Shown piece after piece: positions 4,758 through 64,000 of a DNA stretch of 64,000 nucleotides (position 1 is the stretch's first letter; each line of letters begins with the position of its first letter). Below the pieces are notes generated by a model. It was not told the origin of the DNA, did not search any database, and saw only the letters and a list, made by a program, of their open reading frames with translations. Origin of the DNA: a virus; the IMG/VR virus record IMGVR_UViG_3300035070_003528, positions 37,466-101,465 of that record; one strand, 5' to 3'. Made by a program: the position numbers and the translations under genes.

Positions 4758-5893
4758 AATGTTCTCTTTATTTCCTTAACCACAACGGTCGTTGCCTTGC
4801 CAAGATTCTCTCCGAATTCATCACGAATAAACTTAGCCACTTGTTTTGTGTCAAATTCCGCAATGTGCTCTTGAATATTCGCCAACATATTAGGGAAAGT
4901 TTGCTGTGTTGCACTCAATGCCGCAACTGGAGCTAGTGGTTGTAGAATATCGTATCCGTTTTGCTGGTATTCAATTACAACTGCACCTAACGCAACTGCT
5001 TCTAACATAATCGTGCTATGCTGACCAACTACAATTGTGTTGCCATTACGGCATAGAATCAGATTCTCCGGCGCGTTGTATGTCGTTAGTTTCTGGGGTA
5101 AATCACCGTATGTTCCTGCTTCTAGCTCAAACGGATGTGGGCGAAACACGAAATCGAAACCAAGTTTTGTGGCAAAGTTGTGAAGGAAACTTGCATCTTG
5201 TGCTATGTTTCCAATGTATTCCTCTTGAAGTGTCGGGACAAAAAGCACGGTTTGCCGCCCACCGGATAGAGCATGTGCTTCTTCTCTACTCATGTTAACA
5301 TATTTATCTAAATGGACAGGCCCAGATACAACCAGTTGGCTATTTTTCAACCCGGCAGCGATGTATTGCTTTTTAGTTGTGCTACTCCAAACAAACAGCT
5401 TGTCAACAAATTCACTTGCTGACTGTTGTTTATTCATGGTAATCTGATCTCTGTCGCGCAATACACCCTCTTGAAAAGCGAATACTGGTACACCTGTTTC
5501 TTGTGCAAGGTAAGCAAGCGGTTTAGCAAAGAAGTTGTTACTGTGGAGAATCAAAACGGCCGTTGCGCTTGAAATTACATTGCGATAGGTTACGATTAAT
5601 TCAGCCGCCTCTCTAACTGAGTATACTTGCCACCAAGGAGCAACCCCAGGCAACAATGGCATGTCTCTAAGCGTTCTCTCGACAATGCTGTCAACCAATT
5701 TGTCGTCACCGGGTTTAAATGATGTATACGAATGAATGTACGGTTGACCAGACGCATTCATGTACAACAGCGGCGGGTCGATGTTGATGGCATTATTGGT
5801 TATCAACCAGCGCACATCTCGATCTGCCAATGCGTCAAATACCGGCTGTAATTTTTTCTTATGGTGTTCTCTACCACTGAATACTAAGATCAA
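4754..5893 (-). CDS. GT-B fold sugar transferase/epimerase-like protein
   Basis: FQEG, G-P-x-x-D, FRPHPFE and STIMLEAVALG motifs typical of capsule-synthesis GT-B enzymes. Confidence 0.7.
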   Translation of the reverse strand: MILVFSGREHHKKKLQPVFDALADRDVRWLITNNAINIDPPLLYMNASGQPYIHSYTSFKPGDDKLVDSIVERTLRDMPLLPGVAPWWQVYSVREAAELIVTYRNVISSATAVLILHSNNFFAKPLAYLAQETGVPVFAFQEGVLRDRDQITMNKQQSASEFVDKLFVWSSTTKKQYIAAGLKNSQLVVSGPVHLDKYVNMSREEAHALSGGRQTVLFVPTLQEEYIGNIAQDASFLHNFATKLGFDFVFRPHPFELEAGTYGDLPQKLTTYNAPENLILCRNGNTIVVGQHSTIMLEAVALGAVVIEYQQNGYDILQPLAPVAALSATQQTFPNMLANIQEHIAEFDTKQVAKFIRDEFGENLGKATTVVVKEIKRTL

Positions 5894-6108
5894 CTAATTC
5901 CTCCAATCTTATGTTCTAGATCGGCTGTAACCTCAAGCCAATTTTCCGGCACTGAATTGTTTGGCGCATATTCCCACACAATAAACTCTGTTCTGTACCC
6001 CCTGCCGCATTTTTTGCACCTGAATATTTTGTAATGCGACACAGAAATAGTTTCGCCACAAACGCAGTCAACAAAACATTGGGTATCTTCGCTGCTGTAA
6101 TTAATCAT
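5890..6108 (-). CDS. small zinc-ribbon protein
   Basis: CVCG...CKKCG; overlaps the next gene. Confidence 0.55.
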   Translation of the reverse strand: MINYSSEDTQCFVDCVCGETISVSHYKIFRCKKCGRGYRTEFIVWEYAPNNSVPENWLEVTADLEHKIGGIS

Positions 6109-6288
6109 AGTACCCCACTAAATACTAGTATCATAATATTTTTTCTATGAACAGCCAGCCAATATGCAATTGGTTCGATCTTTGCTTATTAAATGTTTGA
6201 GCATTTTTGAAGTGATAAAGTCTAAATTTATTTGATAAGCGAAGAACAACTTTGCCTATCTTGAAAATCTTTTTCAGTCTAAGATTGC

Positions 6289-7200
6289 TCATTGTAAGAC
6301 TCCTGAAAAAAAACTAGCTTTCTCTGTATTTGCAATATCATAATAAGTAATCTTTACATTTTCTGGAAATTGACGAACCAAGTTTTCGTCATAAGTTGGG
6401 AGTAATACCTCCTCGCAGTTATGTAATCCAATAGCATCCTGTAATTCAATTTGTTCGTGCTGTGCTAGTTGTGGGAATGTTTTCATAAACTTACGCCATT
6501 CTGTGTTGTTAGGAAACCCGATAACCAGTTTTTTGTCACCGAGTTCAATAGACTGGAACATAACCAATGCCTTCCAATCAAATCGACTGTCGTAATACAT
6601 TCCAATTGTTTTCTTTCGCAATTCAGTTGGGCGAGGACGAGTTGGCACATCAAGCCCAGCAGAAACAACTTTCTTTATTTTATTCTTCAATAGAAATTGA
6701 CGCTCTTGTTCGTGACTAACAACTAGGCTTATTTTGTTATACCAACGCAGAAAATCCATATGCTGGCGGTCTAGTATACTACTGGTTTTAACGGCCGTCG
6801 CTTTACCAACGTGTTCAACTGCTTGCCAAATAACTGGATTGTGTAAATCGAACGAGACAATCAGTTCGTCAAAATTAATCATATCCAGAATGCTAGTAAT
6901 ATCATTGTGTGGATAATACCAAAAGCGCAGTCGATCAATACCCAGAACTTTCCACGCTGGCAATGAAGTAGTATCAATATTGATACCATCTAACACACCG
7001 GGCATAGCGATTTCATTGAATGATTTATCCCGTTCGGCCGTTGTGCTACTACGTGAAACAATTGGGATAATACTAATACCGAGTTTGGTAAATGGGTCAG
7101 AAAGTTGTGCTGACGCGATTACAATTCGCTCTGATGTTGGGGTGCGCAATATCTCAGCCAGCAGTAATTCAGACGAACGGGTTACGATGAATAACTTCAA
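6289..7200 (-). CDS. hypothetical protein, possibly degenerate GT-B fold
   Basis: Large alpha/beta ORF in the sugar cluster; TTG start overlaps the upstream stop and follows a GGAGG RBS. Confidence 0.6.
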   Translation of the reverse strand: MKLFIVTRSSELLLAEILRTPTSERIVIASAQLSDPFTKLGISIIPIVSRSSTTAERDKSFNEIAMPGVLDGINIDTTSLPAWKVLGIDRLRFWYYPHNDITSILDMINFDELIVSFDLHNPVIWQAVEHVGKATAVKTSSILDRQHMDFLRWYNKISLVVSHEQERQFLLKNKIKKVVSAGLDVPTRPRPTELRKKTIGMYYDSRFDWKALVMFQSIELGDKKLVIGFPNNTEWRKFMKTFPQLAQHEQIELQDAIGLHNCEEVLLPTYDENLVRQFPENVKITYYDIANTEKASFFSGVLQ

Positions 7201-8384
7201 ATTCGCTCCTCCCATGTGCTAATGTAACTAGCAACGGCCGTTTTGCCCACTGCTCCGCGATTGATGTCAAGCACACTGTTGTTCCAATTGTGTTGCATAA
7301 TAACGTTCTGTAACTCAGCTATGTTTTTTGTTGGCAACACGTCATTGAACTGCAACTCATCAAGTTTGCTTACAATCGCACGTGCGACTCGTTCTGTTGC
7401 AGGTGCATCTAATCCACATGCCGCAATGTACTCTACATCTGGGTCTGGCTCGAAAAACGCTGTTGTTGCATACTCTAGTAATTCACTAACACTGAGGCAA
7501 CTTGGACGATTGGCGTATCCATCGTCCTCTGGTTCGCCAAATGAAACAACTGGTTTGTTTTGTAACATTGCGTCGAGTTCCGTAATACAACCAACCCGAT
7601 TTACCACAGCGTCACACGCTGCAATTACATTAAACACAGTGTCTTGGGTAACGCAGACGTAGTTACGCTCGTCGCACCAGCGTTGTATTTCAATGACATC
7701 TTCCATTGGGTGCGGTTTTACAAGTATTTGCCAAGATGGATTCTCGTCGTGCAGAGCATCAACGGCCGTCATGAAGCGTTGGCGTTCTCTCATTTCGTTT
7801 TGCGCAAATACCAGCGGGTCTTCTCTTCCGCTGATTTTTGTAACGCCTAGGTCATGCCAGTCGCTTTTGTTAAACTGTGTGTCTTGAAACGCGAATTTTG
7901 CTTGTGGAAATGATGTGAATACACCAACAACCGGGTCATCTCCAAGTCCGTATTTGGCACGTACTTTGTCGCAATCGTCAATTAGATTCGTGTGGGTGTA
8001 ATGCACATCGAAACGGGGGCAACCAGTTACAACTGCGTCGGTTGTAGTAAATTGTTTGGCAACGTGTTCGTTCCACGATAGGAATAAATCAATTTTTCCA
8101 TCTTGACTGTTTACAAACCACTGCTCTTGTTCGACAGTGTTCGGCCGTCCTTCTGTTGGCATTACAATACTGTATGGCGCACGACGAATAATTTCTTCAT
8201 TACGAAAACCAATTGCATGGTTCAGTATCACAACATGAGGCTTGAATAATTCCATTGTTTCTCGCCACAAGTCGATTGAAACAGCTATTACATCATAATT
8301 ACGTAACTCAACCAAGCGTTTTTTGACCAACAAACATGGAATTGTGTCTCGATAACGACTGTCTACAAAAATTGCTACTCTCAT
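7197..8384 (-). CDS. surface carbohydrate biosynthesis protein (GT-B fold)
   Basis: VDSRYRD, PTEG, VTGCPRFD, VKPHPME and ELDAMLQNKPVV. Confidence 0.75.
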   Translation of the reverse strand: MRVAIFVDSRYRDTIPCLLVKKRLVELRNYDVIAVSIDLWRETMELFKPHVVILNHAIGFRNEEIIRRAPYSIVMPTEGRPNTVEQEQWFVNSQDGKIDLFLSWNEHVAKQFTTTDAVVTGCPRFDVHYTHTNLIDDCDKVRAKYGLGDDPVVGVFTSFPQAKFAFQDTQFNKSDWHDLGVTKISGREDPLVFAQNEMRERQRFMTAVDALHDENPSWQILVKPHPMEDVIEIQRWCDERNYVCVTQDTVFNVIAACDAVVNRVGCITELDAMLQNKPVVSFGEPEDDGYANRPSCLSVSELLEYATTAFFEPDPDVEYIAACGLDAPATERVARAIVSKLDELQFNDVLPTKNIAELQNVIMQHNWNNSVLDINRGAVGKTAVASYISTWEERI

Positions 8385-8545
8385 GCAATCATGTACTCCA
8401 TCAACGTAGGCAGGGGCAAAACAGTCGTATGCTTATCCCCGTGGTGTCGGCCTACAAAGATTAGACTAGCACCACTGGTTGACCACACGAACGAAACAAT
8501 TGGTGTGTTGCAGTCCTTGCAGCGAAGCAATACGCTAGTTGCCAT
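8381..8545 (-). CDS. 54-aa putative Zn-binding protein (not in the ORF track)
   Basis: MATSVLLRCKDCNTP...RHHGDKH; start and stop overlap both neighbours. Confidence 0.6.
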   Translation of the reverse strand: MATSVLLRCKDCNTPIVSFVWSTSGASLIFVGRHHGDKHTTVLPLPTLMEYMIA

Positions 8546-8745
8546 TAAGAAAAGAAAATTCGGTTCAGAGTTGCTTTTAGCTGGGACAGGAATTGACCAA
8601 GTTGTTCCTGGTTGCCAGTGTCAACATTACGGCCGTGATTCAACACGACTTCCCACACTCGTTGGGCATCTGCCAAAGACACCGGTTCTCCCTGTGCCAT
8701 TTTTGCGAATGCTGCTGTTTGTAATTCTAGGTTAAGATTGTTCAT
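8545..8745 (-). CDS. hypothetical protein
   Basis: AAGGAG RBS; first gene after the promoter at 8825-8852. Confidence 0.7.
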   Translation of the reverse strand: MNNLNLELQTAAFAKMAQGEPVSLADAQRVWEVVLNHGRNVDTGNQEQLGQFLSQLKATLNRIFFS

Positions 8746-8756
8746 AATTCTCCTTA

Positions 8757-8784
8757 AAATAAAAAATGCGCCACTGTGGGCGCA
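8757..8784 (-). terminator. intrinsic terminator-like hairpin upstream of the sugar operon
   Basis: TGCGCC-CACAGT-GGCGCA followed by TTTTTTATTTT on the minus strand. Confidence 0.65.
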
Positions 8785-8824
8785 AATTAAAAAGCAACTA
8801 GCCCATCAGGTGGTTCTAGTTGCC

Positions 8825-8852
8825 ATTATATCATCGTTATACGAAATGTCAA
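8825..8852 (-). promoter_or_regulatory. sigma70-type promoter
   Basis: TTGACA-N16-TATAAT on the minus strand. Confidence 0.7.
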
Positions 8853-9361
8853 CGATTGAATATTTGTTGCAATGCGTTTCCTATTTTTTGCGCAGCTTGT
8901 TGTAAATAACTATCTGCGCGAGTAACCGAATAGCGACTCTCGCCGGTTCGTCGTATATCTATTCCAATCTCAGCCCCTATTTCTGTCACGTTGCGCCAAC
9001 CGTGCTGCCTATGAAATGCGGCTTGCTTTGCATTATCATGCACATATGGTGAATATGTAGCTGGATTATCGACGGTTGTAGACGATCCAAACGGAGAATT
9101 GACCGCCCAACTTGGCCCAAGATTTTGACTACGGGGGTCAACACGGCCATTTGCGTGAACTAACCCACTGCCACGTACCCAATATGGAACAGGCGGTCTG
9201 TTTCCAGCATTTTCTGGGGGGTACACACGTGCCTCTCGTACAAAGTCGTATCCAATGCGACGAGAAATATCTTGAACTTGTAATGTCGCTTCTTGTTCAA
9301 CACGTGCGGCGAAAATAAGATTCGCTTTGTTCACAATATAAGCGCGTAAATCTACTGCCAT
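8849..9361 (-). CDS. HK97 gp10-like head/tail completion protein
   Basis: Directly after the portal; YPP...Y.R...L..SW...V.N.A.YSPYVH...QA..H...GW pattern. Confidence 0.6.
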   Translation of the reverse strand: MAVDLRAYIVNKANLIFAARVEQEATLQVQDISRRIGYDFVREARVYPPENAGNRPPVPYWVRGSGLVHANGRVDPRSQNLGPSWAVNSPFGSSTTVDNPATYSPYVHDNAKQAAFHRQHGWRNVTEIGAEIGIDIRRTGESRYSVTRADSYLQQAAQKIGNALQQIFNR

Positions 9362-10956
9362 TGTTCAAACAACTCGTTTAGTTCTTCTTCTGTGGCAATC
9401 GCTTTCAGGCCAGTCGTTATCTCATCAAATATATCCCTAGGAATAATATTTGTTTCAAACGGCCGTGCTAGAGCATCGCCCTGTCGTTCTAGATTGCGAC
9501 GAGCCACAGTACGGTATCGTTTTAGTTCTGCCCGAACCCCCTCTTGAACTGCTTTTACGTTAACTTCATTACCGATTGCCGGTTCGTCATTTCGGCTCAT
9601 TTGATTTGTTATTGATTCAGGATCTTGAAAATCGCTGAGATTACCCACTTCCGGCGGTTTTGCTTGGTCGCGCCCAGAAACATCTGCAATGCCAAAGAAC
9701 TGAGCCACGAAACTACTGTTTGTCGCCAGGGGCATCGGCAAATCGCCAAGTCCTTCCATTCCCTCTGGATCAACCAACGGTGCATCACCATCGTTCTCAC
9801 GCATTTCATTAACTGTTCGCCAACGACTGTAAATCATGCTCTCTTGAATATTTAGCGCACGGTCGTATGTGCGGGGGTCTTCGTACATAGCATAAACTTC
9901 GTCATTGGGATAAAACCGCTTAATGACTTGGTTTTGGATATGATCTTGGAGCATGATAAACAGGGGATAATATACCTGCTCTTTGAGAATCTTATCCATT
10001 TCCTTAAGGCCTTCTCCAGATGTCAATCCATTACTATGAATTGGGAAGCCGAAGAAAATCGTATCTATTTCATCACGATTCATCTGCTGCGCCAAGATGG
10101 TTTGTAGTTCATTTTGTGTAAAACCAAGCGACTTTGTATCAATCTGTCCCGCACGGGTTACGGCAATTGTACTTCCCTCGTCCTGCCAATCCCGTTTAAT
10201 CTGTGCTTTGGCTACCTCGAAGTCTGCGGGTGAAAGGTCTGGATCTAGGCTAACTAAGGTCAGTGGCAATCCGCGATTTTCATTAAACAGCTTATCCTGA
10301 GACTTTTGTAAACCAAGTTGGATTTGCGCCGGAGCAATAGCAGCTAAAAACGGTGGCAAACTGCGCCAGTAGTCGGACGGATCGGCATATCGTATCCACA
10401 GAATATAACGACCGTCTATTATGATTGGTTTAGCATCGTTCTCTCTGGGGAAGTAGGCGAATTTGGTGACGTAGTTATTTTTATCTTTAATTGGTTCTAT
10501 TTGGTGAGAATTAATAGGCCAAATTTCGACAAGTTCATCGGAGTTATCCGTGTTAGGAGCAAGAAACGCAAATGCGCCCTTGCGACTGGTTTGCAGATGA
10601 CTCATTAAATAACCAAGCAAATAACTTTTGGTCATCCACGGGTTTGGGTTATGGTATATATCGAGGAACGGATGATCTAAGTCGTCAATCATCTTGCGCG
10701 ACTCGCCTTTTCGTTTCATCCTGAATTTTGCTGCCCAAACATTTCTGTTTATTAGCTGAATATCAGCGTACACCCAGCCAATGATACTCAATAAACGAAT
10801 AAGTTCTTCTTCTGTGTACGCATCCCAATTCACTGCCTGACTGTCATAAATGCTTACATCACTGCCAATATATCGTGGCACAGATTGTGTTAGTGCGGCT
10901 TTTGAGAACCGACTTACCATCCAATTGCCAACTGTTCCAAGAAAACTATCTGCCAT
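9352..10956 (-). CDS. phage portal protein (HK97-like)
   Basis: HPFLDIYHNPNPWMT, VEIWPI and TVNEMRE; follows terL. Confidence 0.92.
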   Translation of the reverse strand: MADSFLGTVGNWMVSRFSKAALTQSVPRYIGSDVSIYDSQAVNWDAYTEEELIRLLSIIGWVYADIQLINRNVWAAKFRMKRKGESRKMIDDLDHPFLDIYHNPNPWMTKSYLLGYLMSHLQTSRKGAFAFLAPNTDNSDELVEIWPINSHQIEPIKDKNNYVTKFAYFPRENDAKPIIIDGRYILWIRYADPSDYWRSLPPFLAAIAPAQIQLGLQKSQDKLFNENRGLPLTLVSLDPDLSPADFEVAKAQIKRDWQDEGSTIAVTRAGQIDTKSLGFTQNELQTILAQQMNRDEIDTIFFGFPIHSNGLTSGEGLKEMDKILKEQVYYPLFIMLQDHIQNQVIKRFYPNDEVYAMYEDPRTYDRALNIQESMIYSRWRTVNEMRENDGDAPLVDPEGMEGLGDLPMPLATNSSFVAQFFGIADVSGRDQAKPPEVGNLSDFQDPESITNQMSRNDEPAIGNEVNVKAVQEGVRAELKRYRTVARRNLERQGDALARPFETNIIPRDIFDEITTGLKAIATEEELNELFEQWQ

Positions 10957-13296: not shown

Positions 13297-13587
13297 ATGA
13301 TTAGTATACCAGAAAAGTTCTTATGCCCTAATTGTCTATCGTCACACAAGTTGGACGAAAACATGTTATTTGTTATAGACAGTCTGGAAATGCTAGACAA
13401 TCCGGATTGGCATCCAATAATTTGCCCAACATGCGGCATCGATTTTATTATCACAGACGAATTTCGTTGTTTTATCCCAGATGAACCGACGATTGTTTCG
13501 GCTGAAACACAAAACGAGTTACTTGCCATGAAAACAGTTGTTGCGGTAATGGGCGTATGGCGAACAAAAAAACCGGAGGCAAATTAA
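13297..13587 (+). CDS. zinc-ribbon protein
   Basis: CPNC...CPTC; stop overlaps the methyltransferase start. Confidence 0.65.
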   Translation: MISIPEKFLCPNCLSSHKLDENMLFVIDSLEMLDNPDWHPIICPTCGIDFIITDEFRCFIPDEPTIVSAETQNELLAMKTVVAVMGVWRTKKPEAN

Positions 13588-14030
13588 TGAATGTACTATC
13601 GCTTTTTGACGGAATGAGTTGTGGGCAAATCGCGCTACATCGCGCTGGGATTAAATTTGATAAATACTATGCCAGTGAAATAGATAAATATGCAATCGCC
13701 GTGACTCAGCACAACTATCCCAGCACAACCCAATTGGGTGATGTTACAAAATGGAGAGAGTGGGATATTGATTGGGAGTCGATTGGGTTAATTATTGGGG
13801 GATCTCCATGCCAAGGGCTTTCCCAATCTGGGGCTGGGGCTGGATTAAAAGACGAGCGTAGTGCATTGTTTTTTGTGTTTATGGATATACTGCGCCACGT
13901 ACAATCATTAAATAGCAATGTGGTATTTTTGCTGGAAAATGTTGTGCCTCGTAAAAAAGAGTGGGCAGAGAACATGACGGAAGCATTATTTTTGGCGTAT
14001 ATGGGCAGCAATTGGGAAAGAGTTGACTAG
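13587..14030 (+). CDS. dcm: C5 cytosine DNA methyltransferase, N-terminal half (motifs I-VI)
   Basis: VLSLFDGMSCG, SEID, GDV, GGSPCQ and LLENV; GGAGG RBS before the ATG at 13587. Confidence 0.9.
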   Translation: MNVLSLFDGMSCGQIALHRAGIKFDKYYASEIDKYAIAVTQHNYPSTTQLGDVTKWREWDIDWESIGLIIGGSPCQGLSQSGAGAGLKDERSALFFVFMDILRHVQSLNSNVVFLLENVVPRKKEWAENMTEALFLAYMGSNWERVD

Positions 14031-14058
14031 TATCGGCATCTAATTTATAATTACTGGT

Positions 14059-14706
14059 ATGATTATAACTAAGAAAGTATTCGCAACCGTATCCGGCAGA
14101 AATAAAAAGCACTATGAGGAAAAGGGATACAATCTCCCTTACAAAAAAGATAATCGGGGAAGAACCGGTATACCAAAGGGTACGCAAATCGAAGTCGATG
14201 TATTAGATATACATCCATCGAGCCAGATTAAGATACAATATAAATGCGATGATTGCGGAAACATTTCGGAAGTTCCGGCTCAATCGATTTTTTGGAGAAA
14301 AAACAGCCAGTATAACAAAACCGGAGAAACAGTATGTAGGTCATGTGCAAACAAGAGGATGTCTGGAGAAAACAGCGGAAACTATAAACACGGTAATATT
14401 CGCTATCCAGAATATGTATCAAATGCCAGAAAAAGGGGCATTGAGTTCTCGTTATCCGTAGAAGAATTCGAGGAAATAACAAGCCAAGAATGTCATTATT
14501 GCGGGGGGGTTTCTGTCGATAGAAACCCCAAGAGTCGGGGGCAGGGGATTGACAGAAGAGACAGTAATCGCGGATACGAATACTCCAACTGTGTTCCATG
14601 TTGCGCGACGTGCAATTTTGTCAAAAATTCTATGCCATACAACGAATTTATTCAATACATTAAGGACTTATACACAAAGACAAAGGACTATGAAATTCAA
14701 GAATAA
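14059..14706 (+). mobile_element. free-standing HNH/His-Me finger homing endonuclease inside the methyltransferase gene
   Basis: CDDCG, CRSC and CHYCG...GIDRRDSNRGYEYSNCVPCCATCNFVK. Confidence 0.85.
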
Positions 14707-15379
14707 AACAACCGGAGAAATGGTCGAGTGGAACTATATCGGCATAAACTCAGCATTGCTTTCCGCACAATCGAGAAAGAGGCTGTATTGGACTAATATC
14801 CCCAATGTTGAGCAACCAGAAGACAAAAATATATACTTGATTGACATCATCGAATCTGGACGGACAGATTCGATGAAAAGCTATTGCATTGATGCAAACT
14901 ATTTTAAAGGTGGAAACCTAAAACAATATTTCGAGAAATCTCGCAGACAGCTTGTTTTTCAAGACAAGTCGCCCACTATTGTTTCCACAATATATAAAGA
15001 GAATCCCAAAAGTGTGCTACACAGAAAAAAGTTAGGCTTGCTAATTGGCGAACAAGTTCCAACAACATTCAGCCGACATGAAAAACTGTCTGGAAAAATA
15101 TTGGATAAATCCCTTCCGTTAGAATCTAGCAATTGGAGAGGGTTAAATAGAAACCAAAGACAAACCGCAATTGCAAATATGATTGAATCTGGGGATGTTG
15201 TTATTAGAAAATTAACTCCAATTGAATGTGAAAGATTGCAGACAGTAGATGATAACCATACCCAGTTTGGTGATTTTGGCGGTAAGATCAAAAAAATAAG
15301 TAATACCCAGCGGTACAAAATGCTAGGTAACGGATTTACCGTAAGCGTTATTTCTCACATCTTATCTCTTATGATATAG
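14690..15379 (+). CDS. dcm: C5 cytosine DNA methyltransferase, C-terminal half (motifs VIII-X and TRD)
   Basis: INSALLSAQSRKRLYW, RKLTPIECERLQT and QRYKMLGNGF; own AGGA RBS and ATG at 14690. Confidence 0.88.
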   Translation: MKFKNKTTGEMVEWNYIGINSALLSAQSRKRLYWTNIPNVEQPEDKNIYLIDIIESGRTDSMKSYCIDANYFKGGNLKQYFEKSRRQLVFQDKSPTIVSTIYKENPKSVLHRKKLGLLIGEQVPTTFSRHEKLSGKILDKSLPLESSNWRGLNRNQRQTAIANMIESGDVVIRKLTPIECERLQTVDDNHTQFGDFGGKIKKISNTQRYKMLGNGFTVSVISHILSLMI

Positions 15380-21032: not shown

Positions 21033-21035
21033 ATT

Positions 21036-49296: not shown

Positions 49297-50028
49297 CTAT
49301 TTTAATACAAACAATCGCTCTATCCCTATTTTCCCACCAGTGTTCTTTGTAAGGCTGCTCTTTATTTCCATTTCCCATACACCAACAAAGTCTTTTGGCA
49401 TGTTGTATTCAGACACAAATACCGTATGCCCATCGTTTGACTTATTCCTGCACCACACGTAAAAGTCATCGTGTGGAAAATTCTTGCTGTATTTTGTTGT
49501 GTTTTTGTATGGTGGATCGCAATAAATTATACTATTTGATGGGATATTCAGATTTCTAAAATCGGAGCATATCAGCTCAACGTTGTTGATCTTTGGGGAT
49601 TGGGCGACCACGCTTCTATATGCCTCATTTACGTAATCGCGCTTGCCGGTACTATCCCGCCTCCAGCCTCCGAACCATTTACCACCATACGACAGGGCAA
49701 ATCCATAATATCCCTTCATTCCTTTTCCAATAGAAGATACTGGAGAAAACGTTTTCATTAAATTGTATATCATCTCCTTCCCGTTAGTGTCTTTTTGGGG
49801 AAGAAGATGATAATTGTCCCTAATTAGTTTTAACGCCTCTATTAAATACTCATTTACATCAGACCCAATCCTATTCCCTGTAACCATTTCGGTTAAATTC
49901 GCACCACCAACAAACGGTTCAACAACCCATTGGTTTTCATGTCTGGCATTTAATAGTATTGGTAAGATATATTTTGCTATTCGCTTCTTACTTCCCATGT
50001 ATTTCATAATTACACCTTTGTTAAGCAA
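49297..50028 (-). CDS. dam: DNA adenine methyltransferase (D12/Dam class)
   Basis: KYMGSK, EPFVGG, YCDPPY and FVSEY. Confidence 0.9.
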   Translation of the reverse strand: MLNKGVIMKYMGSKKRIAKYILPILLNARHENQWVVEPFVGGANLTEMVTGNRIGSDVNEYLIEALKLIRDNYHLLPQKDTNGKEMIYNLMKTFSPVSSIGKGMKGYYGFALSYGGKWFGGWRRDSTGKRDYVNEAYRSVVAQSPKINNVELICSDFRNLNIPSNSIIYCDPPYKNTTKYSKNFPHDDFYVWCRNKSNDGHTVFVSEYNMPKDFVGVWEMEIKSSLTKNTGGKIGIERLFVLK

Positions 50029-51596: not shown

Positions 51597-51964
51597 TCCT
51601 CTATTAGCACTCGTTTAATAATTTCAACCAACATTCGTATTTCCATCATGGCTAGTTTATCGTCTACTGCGATACGGCCGTTTGCGATCCCATCATATCT
51701 ATCAGCCAGCTTCCGTAACCATCGTGCTGTTTGGCTCATTCGGTCATCCATTGCTATTACCTCCAATAGAATCAAGATAACCGGCAATTTCCTCACATGC
51801 TGTTGCTAGCTCTCTCCAGTCATTGGCATCCATATACCAGTCAATCTTGCGAGTTCCATTTTGGTCGACCCTCCAAACGAACCCTTTCATTAACGCATTA
51901 TCGTCATCAATGTCAAGCTCAAATTTACCAAGTGCCTCCAACCATTGTTCGGTAACTTTATTCA

Positions 51965-52312
51965 TTAAAACACCTTTTCGTATGGGATTTTAGCAACCTT
52001 AACACGTTGATTAAACACACGGCCGGTGCTGGTTCTTTCTGTGCTAACATCTGGTGCATCGACACCGTCCAGCAATTCTTTCCACAATGACCAGTCGCTT
52101 GTTTCGTAGATGTATCCAGAAGTACGTTCCTTATCTTTCCAACCCCAGAACTCAACAAACAGCGCATGTGGATGATCGCTACCAGCCCAACGAATTTGTT
52201 TAATGTTGGTACTACGGGGCAATGATTCTGTCCCATTTACTTCCAAGTTAAATTTAATTGCACTTGGATATTGATCTTCGATTACTTTTTTTGCTTCTTT
52301 GTTTGAAAACAT
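51965..52312 (-). CDS. KTSC-domain protein
   Basis: STNI..I.W...LFVEF...YIY...W.ELL...S.GR.FN..VK. Confidence 0.65.
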   Translation of the reverse strand: MFSNKEAKKVIEDQYPSAIKFNLEVNGTESLPRSTNIKQIRWAGSDHPHALFVEFWGWKDKERTSGYIYETSDWSLWKELLDGVDAPDVSTERTSTGRVFNQRVKVAKIPYEKVF

Positions 52313-52643
52313 ATTAACCTCCGAATAAAAAATCCTTACTGAATTAATAAGGATTTTATCACAAGTTATATAATTGGTCTATAATACAAATAGGCTATTT
52401 TTTCTTGCGAAAACTACTGTATTTCATCTTGAACTTCTTTTTATCTTTGTCAACGTATTTAATGTCGGCATATGTTGTGGGCAAACCCATCGCTTTACTC
52501 GCGTGTTGCACCTCGAACAAAAACTCTGATTTACCAGCCAATCCACGAGCGATGTTTTCGTACCAATCCTCTCGTGAATAGAACAAGGTGATACGGCGAG
52601 TACCCGTGAATGCGTGATGGAATTCAGCTACGTACAGTTCCAT

Positions 52644-53156
52644 TTAACGATGATCTCCATCGCCTTTAATAACCCCACGCTGCTGACGACTGCCAAGTTT
52701 AAGGTGTAACTCGGTTATAACTGTTTCAATATCTGTGCCAAGGTTCTGAAATTGAGTAAACATGAAATCGCGCAATACACCCAATGCAACCAACGCCCTG
52801 TCTTGTTTTTTGTATGCGCTGCTTTCTCCATCGCGCATGATTTTCTTAGCAATCCCAGCCAGTGTGCCGATTGCGATCATGGCATCTGAAATATATACTT
52901 CCTCGCCTGTCCATGACAGATGACGGTCGAATGACGAGCCATACAATAGCGAAAGCTCGTAGCTGATTTGATTGCCATACCAAAAAACATCAAGCATTTC
53001 TTCGACCATTCGGTCTCTGTCACCCCGTTGCATCTCAAAAATATACTCACTAAATAGTTCATCGACAAATCCAAGTACAGGATAAGCAAGGTTGTTACCC
53101 GCATTTTGGTACACTGCGTAATCCGTCAATCTCATTGCTTCTTCATATAAATTCAT
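52644..53156 (-). CDS. MazG-like nucleotide pyrophosphohydrolase
   Basis: YPVLGFVDE, EEMLDVFWY, KKIMRD and C-terminal KL.SRQQRGVIKGDGDHR. Confidence 0.8.
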   Translation of the reverse strand: MNLYEEAMRLTDYAVYQNAGNNLAYPVLGFVDELFSEYIFEMQRGDRDRMVEEMLDVFWYGNQISYELSLLYGSSFDRHLSWTGEEVYISDAMIAIGTLAGIAKKIMRDGESSAYKKQDRALVALGVLRDFMFTQFQNLGTDIETVITELHLKLGSRQQRGVIKGDGDHR

Positions 53157-53932
53157 AATGTGTCAATCCTTTTTTGCCCAGCTTCACAGTAGGCCGTTAC
53201 TATTTCACTACAAATGTAATTCCGTTTATTCTTAATACACATTTTTGCTGTTGTCATCCCGCCACCAAATGGGTCGTATACTAAATCACCTTCATTGCTC
53301 CAGCTAATAATATGATCCTCTGCCAGTTGCTCTGGGAATTGCGCGGTGTTTACAGTTCGGTCATCTTCGTTAATAAATCCTACACTATATTTCCAAATGT
53401 TGGTTCGTTTGGATGAGGTTGGTGATTTTTTATAAATCCGCTTATTATTCGCCCCTGATTTCCCAAGTCTCTGACCCTTGCTGTATGTGTTATTCGCTCT
53501 TTTTGGCACAATATCCTTTATAGGATTGAATGTTTTTATTTTGCCTTTTGTTAACACGAACATATATTCAAATGCCTGATTGTAACAATATCTAGACCCA
53601 GATGATCCTACACCATTTTTTTCGTAAATCATCGTGTCTAGCACATTAAATCCACACTCACTCAAATACAATACCTGTTTAAAGCTACTTAGTGTTTCGC
53701 ATCCATTTATTGTCTGGTCGGCGACAACCCATACAACAGTTCCTCCGACAGAAGTTTTTTCGTACAAGAGATTTGATATATTACGAAATTCGCCCCATGT
53801 CATGTTGTGGTAATTCCTAGCGTTATCGTAATTTGGGCTAGTTAAAACAAGATCTATAAAATTATCATCCATTCTAGATAGGGTATCAATACAGTTTTCG
53901 TTGTAGAGTTTATTAATCTCGATACCAGACAT
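53153..53932 (-). CDS. N4-C/N6-A DNA methyltransferase (beta class)
   Basis: LVLTSPNY, AQFPE and SNEGDLVYDPFGGGMTT. Confidence 0.85.
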   Translation of the reverse strand: MSGIEINKLYNENCIDTLSRMDDNFIDLVLTSPNYDNARNYHNMTWGEFRNISNLLYEKTSVGGTVVWVVADQTINGCETLSSFKQVLYLSECGFNVLDTMIYEKNGVGSSGSRYCYNQAFEYMFVLTKGKIKTFNPIKDIVPKRANNTYSKGQRLGKSGANNKRIYKKSPTSSKRTNIWKYSVGFINEDDRTVNTAQFPEQLAEDHIISWSNEGDLVYDPFGGGMTTAKMCIKNKRNYICSEIVTAYCEAGQKRIDTL

Positions 53933-54472
53933 TTACACCTCATCTCCCCAAGCATCCCAACCTGGATGAACCTGCCTTGCAAATAATTCAATTCTTGGCA
54001 AATCACCAGCAAGCTCAACGATTTTATCTCTAAATGCATTAGGTTTTTTAGAATGCTTATCTACTCTATGCTCAACCACGCTGCGAACGGATGCTGATAC
54101 TCGTTTGGCTTTGCCTCGTGTGGCTATTAGACAATTCTCAGACCCGGCACGAGTCCAGAAGCCCATTCCAAAGAATGGCTTCCAACGAGTCGTTTTCTTA
54201 ACCCAGGCAAACCCTGTCATTGTTTTTAGCTCAAATCCCCACGCATCCACAACAGCCAATGCTTCTTTTGGCATACTTGCTACCCACCACATAAACAATA
54301 CACAATCATCGGCCGCGATGCTTTGTACTGGCAGGGCGCAAATTTCATCAACACCCGAAACCGTGTACTGCTGGGACGCACCACTAATCATACTACCACC
54401 AGTTCGTTTGTTATTAAATGACCAACCTGGATCTGCGTAAATAATGTTATACTTTTTATCAGGAAACATCAA
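53933..54472 (-). CDS. MT-A70 family adenine methyltransferase
   Basis: IIYADPGW, LFMW, AWGF, GMGFWTR..SE, HSKKP and RIELFAR...GWDAWGDEV. Confidence 0.9.
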   Translation of the reverse strand: MMFPDKKYNIIYADPGWSFNNKRTGGSMISGASQQYTVSGVDEICALPVQSIAADDCVLFMWWVASMPKEALAVVDAWGFELKTMTGFAWVKKTTRWKPFFGMGFWTRAGSENCLIATRGKAKRVSASVRSVVEHRVDKHSKKPNAFRDKIVELAGDLPRIELFARQVHPGWDAWGDEV

Positions 54473-55067
54473 TCTTCCTTTGTGTAAATCATGACATCAC
54501 TCGTTGCAAATAGATATAAGCCAATCCCAATCGGAACGATTAGTAACCATGCGTAATTTTTCTTATCAGGTTGCACATTATTATTATCACCAATAATCAC
54601 TGTGCTATCATTGGCTTCGATGTCATGGCTAAATAATCGAATTTCGCCACCAGATGTACCGTAGGATGATACGGCCGTTAGCCCACAAAATACTAGGGCG
54701 AAACAAATTAACCCAATTAATAGATACTTTTTCAATCCCAATCCTCTATTTCCCATTCTTCGTCTTCATTGTAAAAATTAATTAAATCACTTTCGTCATA
54801 ATGAAGCACATGCATACGCACTTGTAAATCTTCGTCTGACATATTACCGTCATAGGCATTTTGCAGTCTATCGTGCGCCCGTCTTCCTGTTTCCGCAAAT
54901 GAGACACCTGATTTTTGTTGAATTATAATAAACACAACACCAATTACCATCAAGCAGATTACAAACAATACGCCAAGAGCAATATACTCAGCGCCAAATG
55001 AAGTGGTCATCATGGTAATTGCAATGAGCAATAAAAATACGGTGAAGAAAATCGTGGCTGTTTTCAT
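54469..55067 (-). other. two small membrane proteins (54469-54756 and 54732-55067)
   Basis: Hydrophobic TM segments; overlapping ORFs. Confidence 0.65.
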
Positions 55068-59902: not shown

Positions 59903-60688
59903 CTATTCTCCCACAAACTTAATCTTTTCGTCTTTGTATTTATCGATACCAGACTTAATATAAATACTAATATCGCTAACGACACTACGCTTGATCCCGG
60001 CGTAGTTTTTTGTCCTAGCCACCACTTTCCCTTCTATTGTTTCATCAAAGCACCAGTTTCCATCATTGTCCTTCACTTTCACCTTACCGGACAGCAGCAT
60101 GGCTAGAACCTGCTTCTTCTCTCCATGTATGGGAATGTATTTGCGCAGTGTGTTAAAATCTCTGTCGTTTAACACGTGCGAAATATTGTTTGTCAGGCCA
60201 TGAATCGTCTTTCCATATGAATAGAAGTATACAGATACGCCAGGAATGCGATAATGCCACTCGAAAAACATATTTTCAGCAACGATTGTAAAATTGACAT
60301 GAGACACATTGGTTAACGAACGCAAAATTGCTTCTATACAGAACTTTGCTGATGTCCCTGTTGCTATTTCATCATCAACGAACAGTACCTCAGTTGCTTT
60401 ATTTATTTCATATCTGTCGTCGTGAACCGTATTGTCTCTATAAACTGGAATTGCAATATGTGGGGGAAACGGCCGTTCTGCATACTCGTAAACCATCTTT
60501 GCTATTTCCCCCATCACCAGCCCACTATTTCCCGCCATCACAACTAAATCGAATTCACGCTTGTTAATCAATGAGTACAATCTGGCCGCATATCGCTCCA
60601 GCCTATCAACCGCAATAGAACTGCGATTATATCGTTTTGACAATTTTTTCAATCTTTTTTGATAATCACCTGGGAATTTTCTAAGCAT
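59903..60688 (-). CDS. phosphoribosyltransferase-fold protein
   Basis: PRPP motif VLFVDDEIATGTS and AGNSG; start moved to MLRKF after AAGGA. Confidence 0.75.
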   Translation of the reverse strand: MLRKFPGDYQKRLKKLSKRYNRSSIAVDRLERYAARLYSLINKREFDLVVMAGNSGLVMGEIAKMVYEYAERPFPPHIAIPVYRDNTVHDDRYEINKATEVLFVDDEIATGTSAKFCIEAILRSLTNVSHVNFTIVAENMFFEWHYRIPGVSVYFYSYGKTIHGLTNNISHVLNDRDFNTLRKYIPIHGEKKQVLAMLLSGKVKVKDNDGNWCFDETIEGKVVARTKNYAGIKRSVVSDISIYIKSGIDKYKDEKIKFVGE

Positions 60689-60936
60689 CGTACTTTCCTT
60701 GTAAATCACTTTACACAATTGCGATAAAATAGTGCTATTATAAAACCATGTCAGAAGTAATCGCATGGTTAGGTAGACCAATAGACGGAATGACAGTGGC
60801 AACTTTGCTGCTCGTTTTATCCGTTGGAGCAAACATTGCATTCGCATCTCGCCATAGACGCTAGATAATCAACCACATATAAAACAATAATAAAAAATAA
60901 ACTGTCATTAGAATTAGTATTCGCCTTAGATACGGA

Positions 60937-61770
60937 TCATCCATCCTGTATATCATACACCATATCATTTGGTGTCTTTTTGTAATATCCATGCTCTCGC
61001 AATATGTTGTCATAGTTGTAAACTGTTGTTCTTGACACGCCCAATGATTCAGCGAATGCCGACATATTCTTTAATGCGTTTTTATCCTGTCGTAATGCGG
61101 CTAGGAATTTACGATGTTTTGCACTGGGCTTGAACGGCCGTGGTTCAGGTGCAGGCGTTGATTTCGCTTCTGCGGCTACGGTACGCTGCTCTGGCATTGT
61201 TTTGGGCTTGTGACGACCAAGTAGACCTTTTTCCTCTAAAAACCGCTCTTGCGTCGTTCTAGAAGCCACAATCACTGCGCCGGGTATTGTCATGAAGCTG
61301 AGAATAAATATGCTGAACGATATTGCGATTGGCTCGAACAGGTAGGTAACAATACTTTGCGTATCACCGGCAACGACGGCCGTATATAATATCCCAATAT
61401 CAACTTTATCAACAAACGACAGTACCCCATTAACAAGCACAATAACCAGTAGATACATACCAAATGATAACACTGGGACAACTGGGCTAACTGAACCTTT
61501 TACTGTTGTTCCTGCGTACCGTTCCCGAAGATTACGAAATTCGATAAATGTGCTAATTGATGCAAAGCCAAGCACTTCGATTACGGCCGCGAACACCAGT
61601 GCCAGATACCACGGAACGCCCAGTATTCCCGACACATGCACATAGGCGAAATAAGCTGGAATGATGGCCGCAAACCACGGAACGATACCAGATGCAAAAT
61701 TAACTAAATAATATTCAGCCTCACCTCGTAACTGATCTGCGGCTTTAAGAAAATCTATTAGTTTTTTCAT
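60937..61770 (-). CDS. membrane protein with C-terminal HTH
   Basis: About 4 TM helices, a Pro-rich linker and AFAESLGVSRTTVYNY. Confidence 0.75.
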   Translation of the reverse strand: MKKLIDFLKAADQLRGEAEYYLVNFASGIVPWFAAIIPAYFAYVHVSGILGVPWYLALVFAAVIEVLGFASISTFIEFRNLRERYAGTTVKGSVSPVVPVLSFGMYLLVIVLVNGVLSFVDKVDIGILYTAVVAGDTQSIVTYLFEPIAISFSIFILSFMTIPGAVIVASRTTQERFLEEKGLLGRHKPKTMPEQRTVAAEAKSTPAPEPRPFKPSAKHRKFLAALRQDKNALKNMSAFAESLGVSRTTVYNYDNILREHGYYKKTPNDMVYDIQDG

Positions 61771-61776
61771 AAAAAA

Positions 61777-62913
61777 TTAGAATCTCATTGGAACAATACC
61801 AAATACGATATTATCATTATTACTGGGACGAACTAACATCCACATCTCATTACGATGAAGCGAAAAAACAATGTTGGGGGCAGACAATAGGTTTTTAAAT
61901 ATCAGCCCAATTTTCTTCACCGAATTCATATTAATAATCCAAGAGTTGGGGTCGCCACTGAATGGAATATGCAAATCAGCACTTTCTACATCGCCGTCTG
62001 CTGATTTTCCTGACAGAACAAGCATATCTTTTTCGTCGTCAAATGTAAACGATACGGCCGATATTGTGTAAATCTCGTTCTTGCCGCGATAATCAACTGT
62101 AGCGAACGCATTTAGCCTGTCCAATATCATGACTGTGTCTACGGTAGCCGAATTATCAGGGCGTACCTTTAGTTCCTCGATCATCTGCTTACCTGGGTAC
62201 GAATCTTGGTCTGCCATTAAAGGGCTGAATACAAAAAAGCTATAATTAAATAACCATGCTTTGCCATCAACAATGCGTAACATCGGACTCGTGTCCCAAT
62301 ACAATCGCAATGCGTATGTCATAAAATCTGCCGGAGCAAGAGCGTCTATAGGTGGGTGAGAGTTATTCTCGATAGAACTATATCCCATGATATATCCATC
62401 AACTGCGACCATCTCAACCCGTTCGCCGATACTGATGTACACACCAGATAGTTTTGGATTCATCTGCATAGATCCAGATACCGCAGCATTGCACACAGAC
62501 AATACGGATGAATAATTCTCAATCACAACCGCATCGGATTCAGATGGCATCTTTATGAACTTGCAGAACGAATAGTCCTCTTGGTATCTTAACGTAGTGC
62601 TATCTACCCCAACCGAGAATTTCAATGATGCGGTTGTGCTACTGATTTTAACCCGTTCGCCATTGAGGGAAACGGAAAGGAATTTATGCAGTTCACGGAG
62701 ATTGATGAATTTGTTGATAATGCTCTCATAGCCGTCATCAAGTTCACATAACCGTGCGCCGCCTAGTTTGGTTTGGAAACTCCCAGATATACACCAAATG
62801 GCATGATCTATTTCAACAAAAACTCCAGTCCCGTTTCCTTTGTGGCCTTCCCCGACCAGAGGTAGTACGGATTTTACTACGCTTCGTAATGCGTCAATTT
62901 GAACACTAAACAT
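61777..62913 (-). CDS. dnaN: DNA polymerase III beta sliding clamp-like protein
   Basis: 378 aa; LSGVYI...VAVDGY, YP linker and terminal IVPMRF. Confidence 0.75.
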   Translation of the reverse strand: MFSVQIDALRSVVKSVLPLVGEGHKGNGTGVFVEIDHAIWCISGSFQTKLGGARLCELDDGYESIINKFINLRELHKFLSVSLNGERVKISSTTASLKFSVGVDSTTLRYQEDYSFCKFIKMPSESDAVVIENYSSVLSVCNAAVSGSMQMNPKLSGVYISIGERVEMVAVDGYIMGYSSIENNSHPPIDALAPADFMTYALRLYWDTSPMLRIVDGKAWLFNYSFFVFSPLMADQDSYPGKQMIEELKVRPDNSATVDTVMILDRLNAFATVDYRGKNEIYTISAVSFTFDDEKDMLVLSGKSADGDVESADLHIPFSGDPNSWIINMNSVKKIGLIFKNLLSAPNIVFSLHRNEMWMLVRPSNNDNIVFGIVPMRF

Positions 62914-63723
62914 CTAATCCTCCATGTCGTCAATCATGTTTCTAATGGTTACATTATTTTGTCGTCCACCACGGCCGTTTACTGGAATATCTCTACCAAT
63001 AGGTCTCTGGCGCTGATTATTGGGTTGATTGCTTGGTTGATTCGGTCGGTGACGATTTTCTGGTTTGTTATTAGACGGAATCGGCAGATTCGATTCACGA
63101 CGATTTTGCGCATTGGGTTTACCCCGATTCCGGTCATTGCTCGGTCTATTTGACTGCGGTTTAGGAGAACCGCCAACAGCGCGACCTAGTCCACTAACCA
63201 TTTTTAACCATGCTGGTGGTTTTCCGCCCAATAGTGTAATCAATGCGGAGAGATTGTCAAAGAACGCACTGATGATGTGGCCTAATATTTCTTCCGCAAA
63301 TACAATGCCGATGTCTAGTAGAATACCACCGCCTACCAACAAACCTGTCAATACTTTTTGATATTCCTCATTCTGAAACCCACCAGTTGGTAATTCGCCA
63401 GCAGAAGCACGATCAAATCGCGCACCTACGTTAGTAAGTGCATCAAACCCACTTACAATCCAAAAGGCGGCAAGCCACCACATGCGCTGATTTTGTTCTT
63501 CTGGTGTATCGGCATTGAATGAACTAGCCATATACAAGAAAAACGTGGGCAGAAATTGAACAGCAATACCAGCCATTACGCCAAACGTTTTATCGACCAC
63601 AAGTAATTCTGTGAAGCGAATAGTTTGCCCCAAACTCCACACAAAACTACCGTAGGCGACCACGAACATCAGGACACCAATGACAATAAACCAAAACACT
63701 CTCTTAGCTGCGCTATCTCTCAT
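62914..63723 (-). CDS. membrane protein with an N/Q/P/R-rich disordered tail
   Basis: About 4 TM segments, a low-complexity C-terminus and an AGGAG RBS. Confidence 0.75.
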   Translation of the reverse strand: MRDSAAKRVFWFIVIGVLMFVVAYGSFVWSLGQTIRFTELLVVDKTFGVMAGIAVQFLPTFFLYMASSFNADTPEEQNQRMWWLAAFWIVSGFDALTNVGARFDRASAGELPTGGFQNEEYQKVLTGLLVGGGILLDIGIVFAEEILGHIISAFFDNLSALITLLGGKPPAWLKMVSGLGRAVGGSPKPQSNRPSNDRNRGKPNAQNRRESNLPIPSNNKPENRHRPNQPSNQPNNQRQRPIGRDIPVNGRGGRQNNVTIRNMIDDMED

Positions 63724-64000
63724 GTTATCTCCTGTGAAAAAATAACCACCATGCTATTAACATGGCGGCTAAACAAAACCAAATCGCGCCAAACAGCAAA
63801 AGCTCTCTATATTACACGCTCTCGTAAGTTCCTTTCACTTTTGCGAAACTTACATCATAATTTTCTTTTACTTCATTAAACGTTTCTACCGCACTACGGC
63901 CGTCTGCTTTCAGTCGCCCAATTTCGGCAATCAGTTCTTCATTAAAATTATCACCCAGCAACAACGCTAGTTTCTGATTGTTCTGCCACACTGCTCGTTG

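Follow-up and report, generated by a model that had tools for sequence, protein, structure and literature searches.

The octamer ACGGCCGT recurs far above expectation in a stretch of viral DNA, the final 64 kb (64,000 nt, positions 37,466 to 101,465; hereafter the window) of IMG/VR record IMGVR_UViG_3300035070_003528, and the same word saturates chromosomes of one bacterial lineage, the Promineifilaceae/Ardenticatenaceae of the phylum Chloroflexota. We consider it probable that ACGGCCGT is a highly iterated palindrome (HIP) of that lineage and that the phage carries the word because it replicates in those cells. The source record is a single-contig virus of 101,465 bp (41.1% GC) that carries a flag for direct terminal repeats and a completeness rating of 100%. 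A sequence-only reading of the window had reported at least 42 perfect copies between 5556 and 63903 at a GC content of about 38%; the window indeed holds exactly 42, the first at 5556-5563 and the last at 63896-63903, but its GC content, 40.3%, had been put slightly too low. In 100 dinucleotide-preserving shuffles of the window the word occurred 0.44 times on average and never more than three times. The whole phage genome contains 55 copies (0.54 per kb), none of them in the 77-bp terminal overlap, making ACGGCCGT its top-ranked 8-mer. The Markov correction that the sequence-only reading had proposed as a check left the enrichment standing at orders 0, 1, 2, 3 and 4 (83-, 71-, 63-, 22- and 4.7-fold); the excess was gone at orders 5-6, because such models contain the word's own 6- and 7-mers.

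The excess centers on the core CGGCCG, which is present in 102 copies versus about 7.6 expected (13-fold; 1.0 per kb). Both the A and the T flank accompany 55 of these cores (about 85 times expectation), one flank accompanies 40 (about 13 times) and neither flank the remaining 7 (about 2 times). The many one-mismatch variants noticed earlier amount to 55 across the whole phage genome, 40 of which deviate at position 1 or 8. The 12 bases on each side of the 55 perfect copies are unrelated to one another, except for a weak A-then-T preference adjoining the word, indicating that ACGGCCGT is a free word and not a repeat element. The sites do not form a conserved, mostly intergenic unit of more than 20 nt, as repetitive extragenic palindromes or miniature inverted-repeat transposable elements would, and the word, being its own reverse complement, is not an asymmetric, orientation-biased word of the Chi or uptake-sequence kind. 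It has been written by point substitution into otherwise unrelated sequence. An artefact of assembly is made less likely by the recurrence of the word in dozens of assemblies, produced independently from short or long reads.

To place the sites relative to genes, we used a simple greedy map of 170 open reading frames (ORFs) covering 90% of the phage genome, in which some small ORFs may be non-coding. The 55 sites fell in frames 0, 1 and 2 in the numbers 17, 19 and 9, and 10 were intergenic, in agreement with the earlier statement that copies lie between genes as well as in different frames (encoding Thr-Ala-Val [TAV], xGR and RP). When synonymous codons were shuffled within genes, only 3.3 ± 1.7 copies arose in coding DNA (maximum 10 in 300 trials) versus 45 observed, and CGGCCG fell to 13.6 versus 86 observed; the suspected HIP1-like signal therefore does act at the DNA level. 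The word was used to spell 17 of the 21 TAV tripeptides (81%, versus 3.6% expected from codon usage), 19 of the 34 [N/D/Y/H]-Gly-Arg tripeptides (56%) and 9 of the 14 x-Arg-Pro-x sequences (64%), so that 45 of all 69 synonymous opportunities (65%) were filled. TAV itself occurred 21 times versus 7.7 expected (2.7-fold), its five permutations 6-10 times each, and NGR, DGR and YGR were about 2-fold over-represented, showing that the word has begun to alter protein sequence. Thus, ACGGCCGT overrides synonymous codon choice and is beginning to change proteins.

We then scanned prokaryotes, one genome per species, for three clustered copies of ACGGCCGT. The matches were mostly Chloroflexota metagenome-assembled genomes (MAGs), many from activated sludge, labeled Ardenticatenaceae, Candidatus Promineifilaceae, Ca. 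Leptofilum, Ca. Leptovillus, Ca. Hadersleviella or Anaerolineae; the NCBI taxonomy places these Chloroflexota genera in the Promineifilaceae (Promineifilales, Ardenticatenia). A minority were high-GC actinomycetes with a low local density. One further contig, L207 (QNER01000079.1; 38.5% GC; labeled Candidatus Parabeggiatoa), carries 7 copies in 6.4 kb; it was binned with a gammaproteobacterium and could be a mis-binned phage or Chloroflexota fragment. Five Promineifilaceae/Ardenticatenaceae genomes of 5.4-8.1 Mb contained 8,959-12,370 copies versus 53-202 of the reversed word. Among 81 species genomes of the family, about 50 had 3,000-14,000 copies (about 1-2 per kb), about a dozen had 400-1,700 and the rest had few, while in an even sample of 400 other Chloroflexota a single genome was strongly enriched (5,706 copies) and another mildly (648), both of them members of the Promineifilaceae family. 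The motif can therefore serve as the host fingerprint that had been suggested, and the word makes assignment of the phage to a Promineifilaceae host likely. These host genomes are incomplete MAGs, for which single absences are weak evidence. The family tallies include the unpublished genome G437, on which no named example or conclusion depends, and the Chloroflexota tallies (400/401 genomes) include the unpublished G043, G150, G178, G232, G277 and G349, as raw tallies only. Many Chloroflexota outside the family nearly lack the word (0-3 copies versus 100-650 of the reversed word), which suggests active avoidance, for example because of EagI-type restriction systems in other lineages.

Comparison of the phage with unbiased 200-kb samples of two hosts, G001 and G004, showed how far the genomes differ in saturation. 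Site density was 1.76 and 1.47 per kb in G001 and G004, about 1.6-3.7 in motif-rich loci of other phages and 0.54 in this phage; ACGGCCGT was the top 8-mer in both hosts as in this phage, the motif-rich loci not being ranked. In the same order, fill reached 98%, 96%, 93% and 81% for TAV, 88%, 82%, 79% and 56% for xGR, and 78%, 54%, 70% and 64% for xRPx, and the TAV tripeptide was in excess 6.9-, 5.6-, 8.6- and 2.7-fold. NGR tripeptides were 6-7-fold over-represented in the host samples. The mention in the sequence-only reading of TAV/NGR-rich proteins in Anaerolineae-type Chloroflexota is thus borne out in the Promineifilaceae (TAV/NGR 6-7-fold, with 96-98% of TAV spelled ACGGCCGTn), and the genome scan that it had proposed did uncover the same enrichment. 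Host mismatches, tallied on both strands, numbered 105-150 at each of positions 1 and 8 versus 11-22 per inner position. The phage is only partly converted, with 65% of opportunities filled versus about 90% in the hosts.

Other phages carry the word as well. When IMG/VR was scanned for pairs of copies 20-50 nt apart, many contigs matched, and about 30 of these carry 1-4 copies per kb; one example locus holds 49 copies in 13.2 kb versus 0.33 expected. Five motif-rich records, among them a provirus and a complete phage of 100 kb, had no match to the terminase of the phage studied here, indicating that unrelated phages share ACGGCCGT. The process behind the word acts at the DNA level on unrelated replicons of the same lineage and drives them toward near-saturation. 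The full 8-mer behaves as a stable end state and the 7-mers as intermediates, and protein constraint holds the process back.

The bases around the word were compared between phage and hosts. At position −1, A and T account for 63% and 22% in G001 and for 46% and 25% in the phage, whose flank preference matches the A/T dialect of G001, G004, G439 and G456 and not the CACGGCCGTG dialect seen in G433, G443 and G412. In tetranucleotide usage the phage is closest to G456 (49% GC; r = 0.85, others 0.55-0.74), and the predicted host is a G456-like family member of the A/T dialect with a GC content near 49%. The same A/T neighbor preference and the decay at positions 1 and 8 are found in this phage, in host chromosomes and in unrelated phages. 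Copies in host chromosomes (samples L251-L270) additionally show an excess of G over C extending at least 16 nt 5′ of each half-site (G 1.1-1.9-fold, C 0.5-0.85-fold) with its mirror image on the other side; the local consensus is approximately GGAA-ACGGCCGT-TTCC. The copies in this phage and in motif-rich phages have no such skew beyond positions −1 to −4, so that word and flank footprint are separable. Words also vary within the family. TGCCGGCA, with the core GCCGGC, is hyper-abundant in several members that lack ACGGCCGT (8,850, 4,690, 6,775 and 4,560 copies in G422, G426, G455 and G474, and 924 in G464; a 30-kb sample of G422 holds 41 copies and no CGGCCG). This looks as if the word had been switched inside the family, a situation known from the alternate HIPs of cyanobacteria. 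CACGGCCG/CGGCCGTG, a dialect with the CGGCCG core, ranks first among the 8-mers of G433, G443 and G412. In G429 that rank goes to GCGGCCGC (the NotI site), and ACGGCCGT is absent from the sample; G415 and G435 are rich in ACGGCCGA and CGGCCGCC, which share the CGGCCG core.

The sites are spread unevenly along the phage (Table 1), with an index of dispersion of 1.96 (p = 0.0075). The earlier count of eighteen copies in 27.1-34.5 kb is correct and compares with 4.0 expected (Poisson p = 2.5e-7). This region is the lowest-GC stretch of the phage (35.7%) and consists of small ORFs, with 6 of its 18 sites intergenic. More generally, sites number 1.24 per kb in ORFs under 100 aa and 1.0 per kb in intergenic DNA versus 0.35 per kb in larger genes, the first two classes thus being 3-4-fold denser (p = 3.6e-5). 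Synonymous opportunities are more frequent in small ORFs (1.46 versus 0.62 per kb in larger genes; p = 0.003), and more of them are filled there (85% versus 57% in large genes; p = 0.049). The longest gap, 9.5-20.0 kb (P = 0.003), covers the portal, terminase, methylase and lysin genes and has just four unfilled opportunities inside. Weak constraint explains most of the uneven distribution; differing residence times of genome modules are possible, fill being somewhat lower in the large genes. The sequence-only reading had taken the absence of sites from the homing-endonuclease, methyltransferase and nrdJ genes as a possible sign of recent acquisition. The absence is real, but, because only about 1.6 sites are expected in the roughly 4.4 kb of methyltransferase, HNH/GIY-YIG and nrdJ genes, it is not significant and is no evidence of recent acquisition; the site-free genes are large, constrained and poor in synonymous opportunities. 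Copies lie inside the spacers of sigma-70-like promoter matches at 27104-27133, 29067-29096 and 34411-34440 (sites 27109, 29072 and 34427), and TATAAT-like hexamers directly follow several intergenic copies (27906, 34427 and 34467). Promoter-like matches are abundant in this AT-rich region (62 found versus 42 expected), and the association may be a coincidence.

As the cause of the word we lean toward a bias in sequence-directed correction or conversion, exerted in the host cell by a putative enzyme. Such a process would turn near-cognate sequences into the full word on any replicating DNA; in its simplest form it would be a biased mismatch correction or gene conversion favoring complete ACGGCCGT, possibly guided by a DNA modification, and it would be limited by purifying selection on proteins. 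Such selection would account for the accumulation of sites in small ORFs and between genes, as well as for the difference between the low-GC phage, about two-thirds converted, and its hosts, at about 90%.

Several results weigh against this host-based explanation. Searches for relatives of the phage came back empty: megablast against INPHARED returned none, tblastn with the terminase reached only about 25-27% identity, to T4-like cyanophages, and neither IMG/VR, scanned with portal and terminase, nor JGI metagenome contigs, scanned with the terminase, gave a relative. The first 20,000 nt of the window matched no spacer of a clustered regularly interspaced short palindromic repeat (CRISPR) array in the 81 family genomes; the best short match in that search adjoins an 87-nt coding tandem repeat, and other short matches were inflated by the shared word. 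The GC content of the phage, 41%, is well below that of the sampled hosts (47-57%), and the G-over-C skew of the host flanks is absent beyond positions −1 to −4 at its copies. Nor did the searches for methylases and Vsr single out an enzyme. Dcm-type methylases (PF00145) were detected in two of five and then in 37 of 81 family genomes, and Vsr, usually beside a Dcm-type gene, in 14 of 81, neither of them tracking the word, while the Dam-type methylase present in five of five hosts looks GATC-type. Finally, near-saturation could also be expected from very strong selection, and the higher fill in small ORFs than in large genes is not what a pure neutral-site drive predicts.

The main rival is that the word is selected in the phage because it is useful in Promineifilaceae cells, either as a "self" tag restraining a host nuclease, much as Chi does but palindromic and free of orientation, or as a binding site for a host nucleoid or repair factor; we regard this, in either form, as a serious but less probable explanation. 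It draws strength from how severely the phage avoids palindromes. The general tendency of phages to do so, noted in the sequence-only reading, applies strongly here: 11 of the 64 six-base palindromes have no copy at all, namely TTCGAA (32 expected), AGCGCT, CTCGAG, CTGCAG, GACGTC and TGGCCA (15.7 expected each) and CCCGGG, GCCGGC, GCGCGC, GGCGCC and GGGCCC (7.6 expected each), and about ten others have a single copy. GGCC outside CGGCCG is depleted too (100 copies versus about 179 expected for all GGCC). The palindrome profiles of phage and host G001 are correlated (Spearman 0.45, p = 2e-4; 0.43 without CGGCCG). This pattern implies many restriction systems in the host community, and the restriction pressure is evidently intense yet spares ACGGCCGT, CGGCCG being by far the strongest exception and the clearest of the few GC-containing six-base palindromes to escape. 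Selection would also fit the convergence of unrelated phages on the same word, the high intergenic density and the dense cluster in the small-ORF region, and HIP1 has been argued to be under selection in cyanobacteria (Xu et al. 2018, PMC5861425). A tag, however, predicts diminishing returns, whereas the phage has filled 65% of its opportunities and the hosts about 90%, with proteins altered. Nor do the phage sites show regular spacing or a fixed position relative to genes, and no candidate reader protein was identified. HIP1 has kilobase-scale periodic spacing (Xu et al. 2018, PMC5861425); with 55 sites in 101 kb, too few for periodicity at that scale, over-dispersion alone was measured.

The sites might instead have arrived ready-made in DNA from host chromosomes or saturated phages. 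At least one domain has been exchanged between the phage and the host family. When window positions 1-20000 were compared as DNA with the 81 family genomes, many of these showed 65-70% nucleotide identity, all at a single locus, the 5′ part of a GH25 lysin-like gene (17751-20321, + strand). Residues 5-312 of the product are 62% identical (E = 4e-123; 59% by tblastn) to a 628-aa protein of the Ardenticatenaceae MAG G001 (L291:391-2277, − strand), which continues into a proline-rich linker and then Ig-like N_BRCA1_IG domains, and 44-55% identical by tblastn to proteins of five other family members. Among 401 evenly sampled Chloroflexota, matches to the domain at E ≤ 1e-30 occurred in three genomes, which are all three family members sampled. 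The N-terminal domain of about 310 aa, which has no Pfam match and recurs in Promineifilaceae proteins, may be a family-specific cell-envelope-binding or enzymatic domain, and its resemblance to the host proteins supports a Promineifilaceae host independently of the word. Uneven site density and the difference in fill between gene classes would likewise suit a mosaic genome. Neither copy of the shared domain carries the word, though, and their third codon positions are 35% identical, that is, saturated, so the exchange is old and imported no sites. Apart from this domain, the 20 kb gave only matches of 26-43 nt (E = 5e-4 to 9e-3) in the 81 genomes; the densest region has the lowest GC content (35.7% versus 47-57% in the hosts); and the flanks of the 55 sites are mutually unrelated. 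With the shared domain site-free and almost no other DNA similarity in the 20 kb searched, we rejected imported host DNA as the source of the sites and consider mosaicism very unlikely.

It is very unlikely that the phage makes the word itself, that is, that its own C5 or another methylase marks CGGCCG/GGCC and a short-patch repair bias then enriches the site. The phage does encode C5, D12-class and N6/N4 methylases (Table 1), and its one-mismatch variants gather at the outer positions as those of HIP1 do (Elhai 2015, PMC4390886). The C5 enzyme, both halves of which match the NCBIfam dcm model, is a candidate cognate enzyme for CGGCCG/GGCC, with a closest host match of only 29% identity; no close host counterparts of the phage methylases were found, and the half with the target-recognition region had no relative in the PDB. 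The gene is, however, split by an inserted endonuclease-type ORF (14059-14706), for which Pfam gives no significant HNH match, and a GIY-YIG/NUMOD endonuclease gene (15426-16076) lies immediately downstream, placing two homing-type endonuclease genes within one 2.5-kb stretch (13557-16076). No Vsr was found in the phage; the absence of TGGCCA and GGGCCC speaks against blanket protection of GGCC; and the same word saturates unrelated phages and host chromosomes, Dcm-type and Vsr genes not being found in most of the saturated hosts. The methyltransferase link drawn in the sequence-only reading is not supported: Dcm-type enzymes do not track the word in the family and were not found in several of its most saturated genomes, although a modification enzyme of another class may be involved. 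MAG incompleteness weakens single absences of Dcm or Vsr but not the overall pattern, which includes the near-complete long-read MAGs G002, G004 and G005. We rejected Dcm/Vsr as a general cause on these counts, and also the host D12-class methylase as a GGCC enzyme, since it scores as canonical Dam in all five hosts G001-G005 (up to 361 bits against the E. coli-type model); the N6/N4 enzymes vary between host genomes.

We can practically dismiss chance, biased codon or amino-acid usage, some longer repeat element and errors of assembly, since the disappearance of the excess at Markov orders 5-6 is outweighed by its rejection under order 0-4 models, dinucleotide shuffles and synonymous-codon shuffles, by the lack of conserved flanks and by the presence of the word in many independent assemblies from different technologies.

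Table 1. Positions, in window coordinates, of the ACGGCCGT sites and of the phage genes bearing on their origin
Feature	Span	Strand	Details
Six ACGGCCGT sites	5556..9466		5556, 6791, 7234, 7762, 8629, 9459; glycosylation-cluster genes and portal gene 3′ end; four in frame 0 (TAV), one xGR, one xRPx
Four ACGGCCGT sites	19960..22810		19960, 20445, 20941, 22803
Dense 18-site cluster, first nine	27109..34474 (whole cluster)		27109, 27262, 27511, 27906, 28038, 28084, 28463, 28798, 29072
Dense 18-site cluster, last nine	27109..34474 (whole cluster)		29711, 29985, 30673, 31008, 32597, 32855, 34373, 34427, 34467
Four ACGGCCGT sites	40071..42184		40071 (intergenic), 40664, 41269, 42177
Five ACGGCCGT sites	46638..54678		46638, 48096, 51366, 51674, 54671
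Five ACGGCCGT sites	60469..63903		60469, 61134, 61376, 62971, 63896
N-terminal 312-aa domain of 856-aa GH25 lysin-like protein	17751..18686	+	No ACGGCCGT site
C5 cytosine methyltransferase, two ORFs split by endonuclease-type ORF	13557..15379	+	PF00145 positions 1-111 and 269-320
Divergent D12-class (Dam-family) DNA methyltransferase	49297..50028	−	30% identical (E = 8.5e-5) to host Dam-type
N6/N4-type DNA methyltransferase	53153..53932	−	PF01555, E = 8e-32

HIP1 of cyanobacteria is GCGATCGC, and alternate HIPs are GGGATCCC, TCGATCGA, GGCGCC, GCsGC and rCCGGy (Elhai 2015, PMC4390886; Xu et al. 2018, PMC5861425). Words of this class are palindromic GC-rich octamers or hexamer cores present at about 0.3-2.7 copies per kb and in at least about 15-fold excess (PMC4390886, PMC5861425). 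The word described here falls in that range (0.54 per kb and 83-fold in the phage, 1.0 per kb and 13-fold for its core, 1.5-1.8 per kb in the hosts) and also agrees with the class in its spread over reading frames, its independence of any longer repeat and its outer-position deviants. Like HIP1 and the alternate HIPs, it is a GC-rich palindromic octamer found at about 0.5-2 per kb, tens to hundreds of times over expectation, in all frames and in non-coding DNA, with deviants at positions 1 and 8, and just as sister lineages of cyanobacteria switched palindromes, TGCCGGCA, GCGGCCGC and CACGGCCGTG dialects exist here in one family. It differs in having the core CGGCCG, in being absent from Elhai's list of alternate HIPs (PMC4390886) and in its carriers, which are not cyanobacteria but Chloroflexota (Promineifilaceae) and their phages, so that it is a HIP-like phenomenon and not HIP1 itself. 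It also differs in being seen in a lytic-type phage genome at intermediate saturation. In cyanobacteria HIP frequency was reported to correlate with the cognate methylase, and Elhai proposed short-patch repair at the methylated site (PMC4390886); for Dcm-type enzymes that correlation is not reproduced here.

Other systems share some of these features. The uptake signal sequences of Pasteurellaceae and DNA uptake sequences of Neisseriaceae are likewise lineage-specific short words, at about 1 per kb in coding and non-coding DNA and with dialects, and they occur in some resident phages. They are, however, non-palindromic and spread by recombination after uptake, a route that fits poorly with a virulent-type phage of 101 kb whose DNA hardly resembles that of host genomes. 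In E. coli, very-short-patch repair by Dcm/Vsr is said to raise the frequency of CCWGG, a finding ascribed to Bhagwat and McClelland in 1992. A sequence-specific repair bias of that kind, turning near-cognate into cognate sites genome-wide, is the type of mechanism we would propose, but the effect here is far larger and Vsr itself is scarce in the family. Chi sites (RecBCD/AddAB) are over-represented GC-rich 8-mers that mark "self" and from which phages can benefit; they are asymmetric, replication-oriented and found about once per 5 kb, whereas ACGGCCGT is palindromic and nearly saturates its synonymous opportunities. Restriction-site avoidance is evident in this phage, with its 11 six-base palindromes at zero (8-32 expected), yet CGGCCG and ACGGCCGT stand 13- and 83-fold over expectation. 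HIP1 has further been linked to transformation and horizontal transfer (2024 preprint 10.1101/2024.09.10.611283; 2026 paper PMC13756078).

The searchable, non-subscription literature contained no paper on ACGGCCGT, on a HIP in Chloroflexota or on HIP imprinting on phages; the searchable papers treat HIPs as cyanobacterial, a feature unexplained for about 30 years. New here are the intermediate saturation of the phage, the concentration of its sites in weakly constrained DNA, the contrast with palindrome avoidance, the host link through a lysin domain and the negative tests of the Dcm and Vsr families. A second, independent HIP-type system in another phylum, with several dialects per family, makes a comparative enzyme search possible. 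Promineifilaceae are abundant filamentous bacteria of wastewater treatment plants, and ACGGCCGT offers an inexpensive and specific way to link uncultured phages to them. Viral DNA either receives the word or is required to have it, even in this phage, which has removed almost every other palindrome; the process therefore operates on whatever replicon the cell contains and cannot be put down to inherited chromosome history alone. The order of events can be read from the intermediate saturation: synonymous sites are filled first, then weakly constrained protein positions and spacers. More tentatively, a Promineifilaceae system that writes or demands the word may act in trans on foreign DNA, with the phage as a natural reporter caught part-way; what points in this direction is its fill of 65% versus about 90%, its lack of the host-like G-over-C flank skew and its strong avoidance of other GC-containing palindromes. 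If so, word and flank footprint would arise from separable processes, and HIP-type words would mark "self" throughout a lineage, a signature that replicons entering the cell have to take on and that could be used to assign uncultured phages to their hosts.

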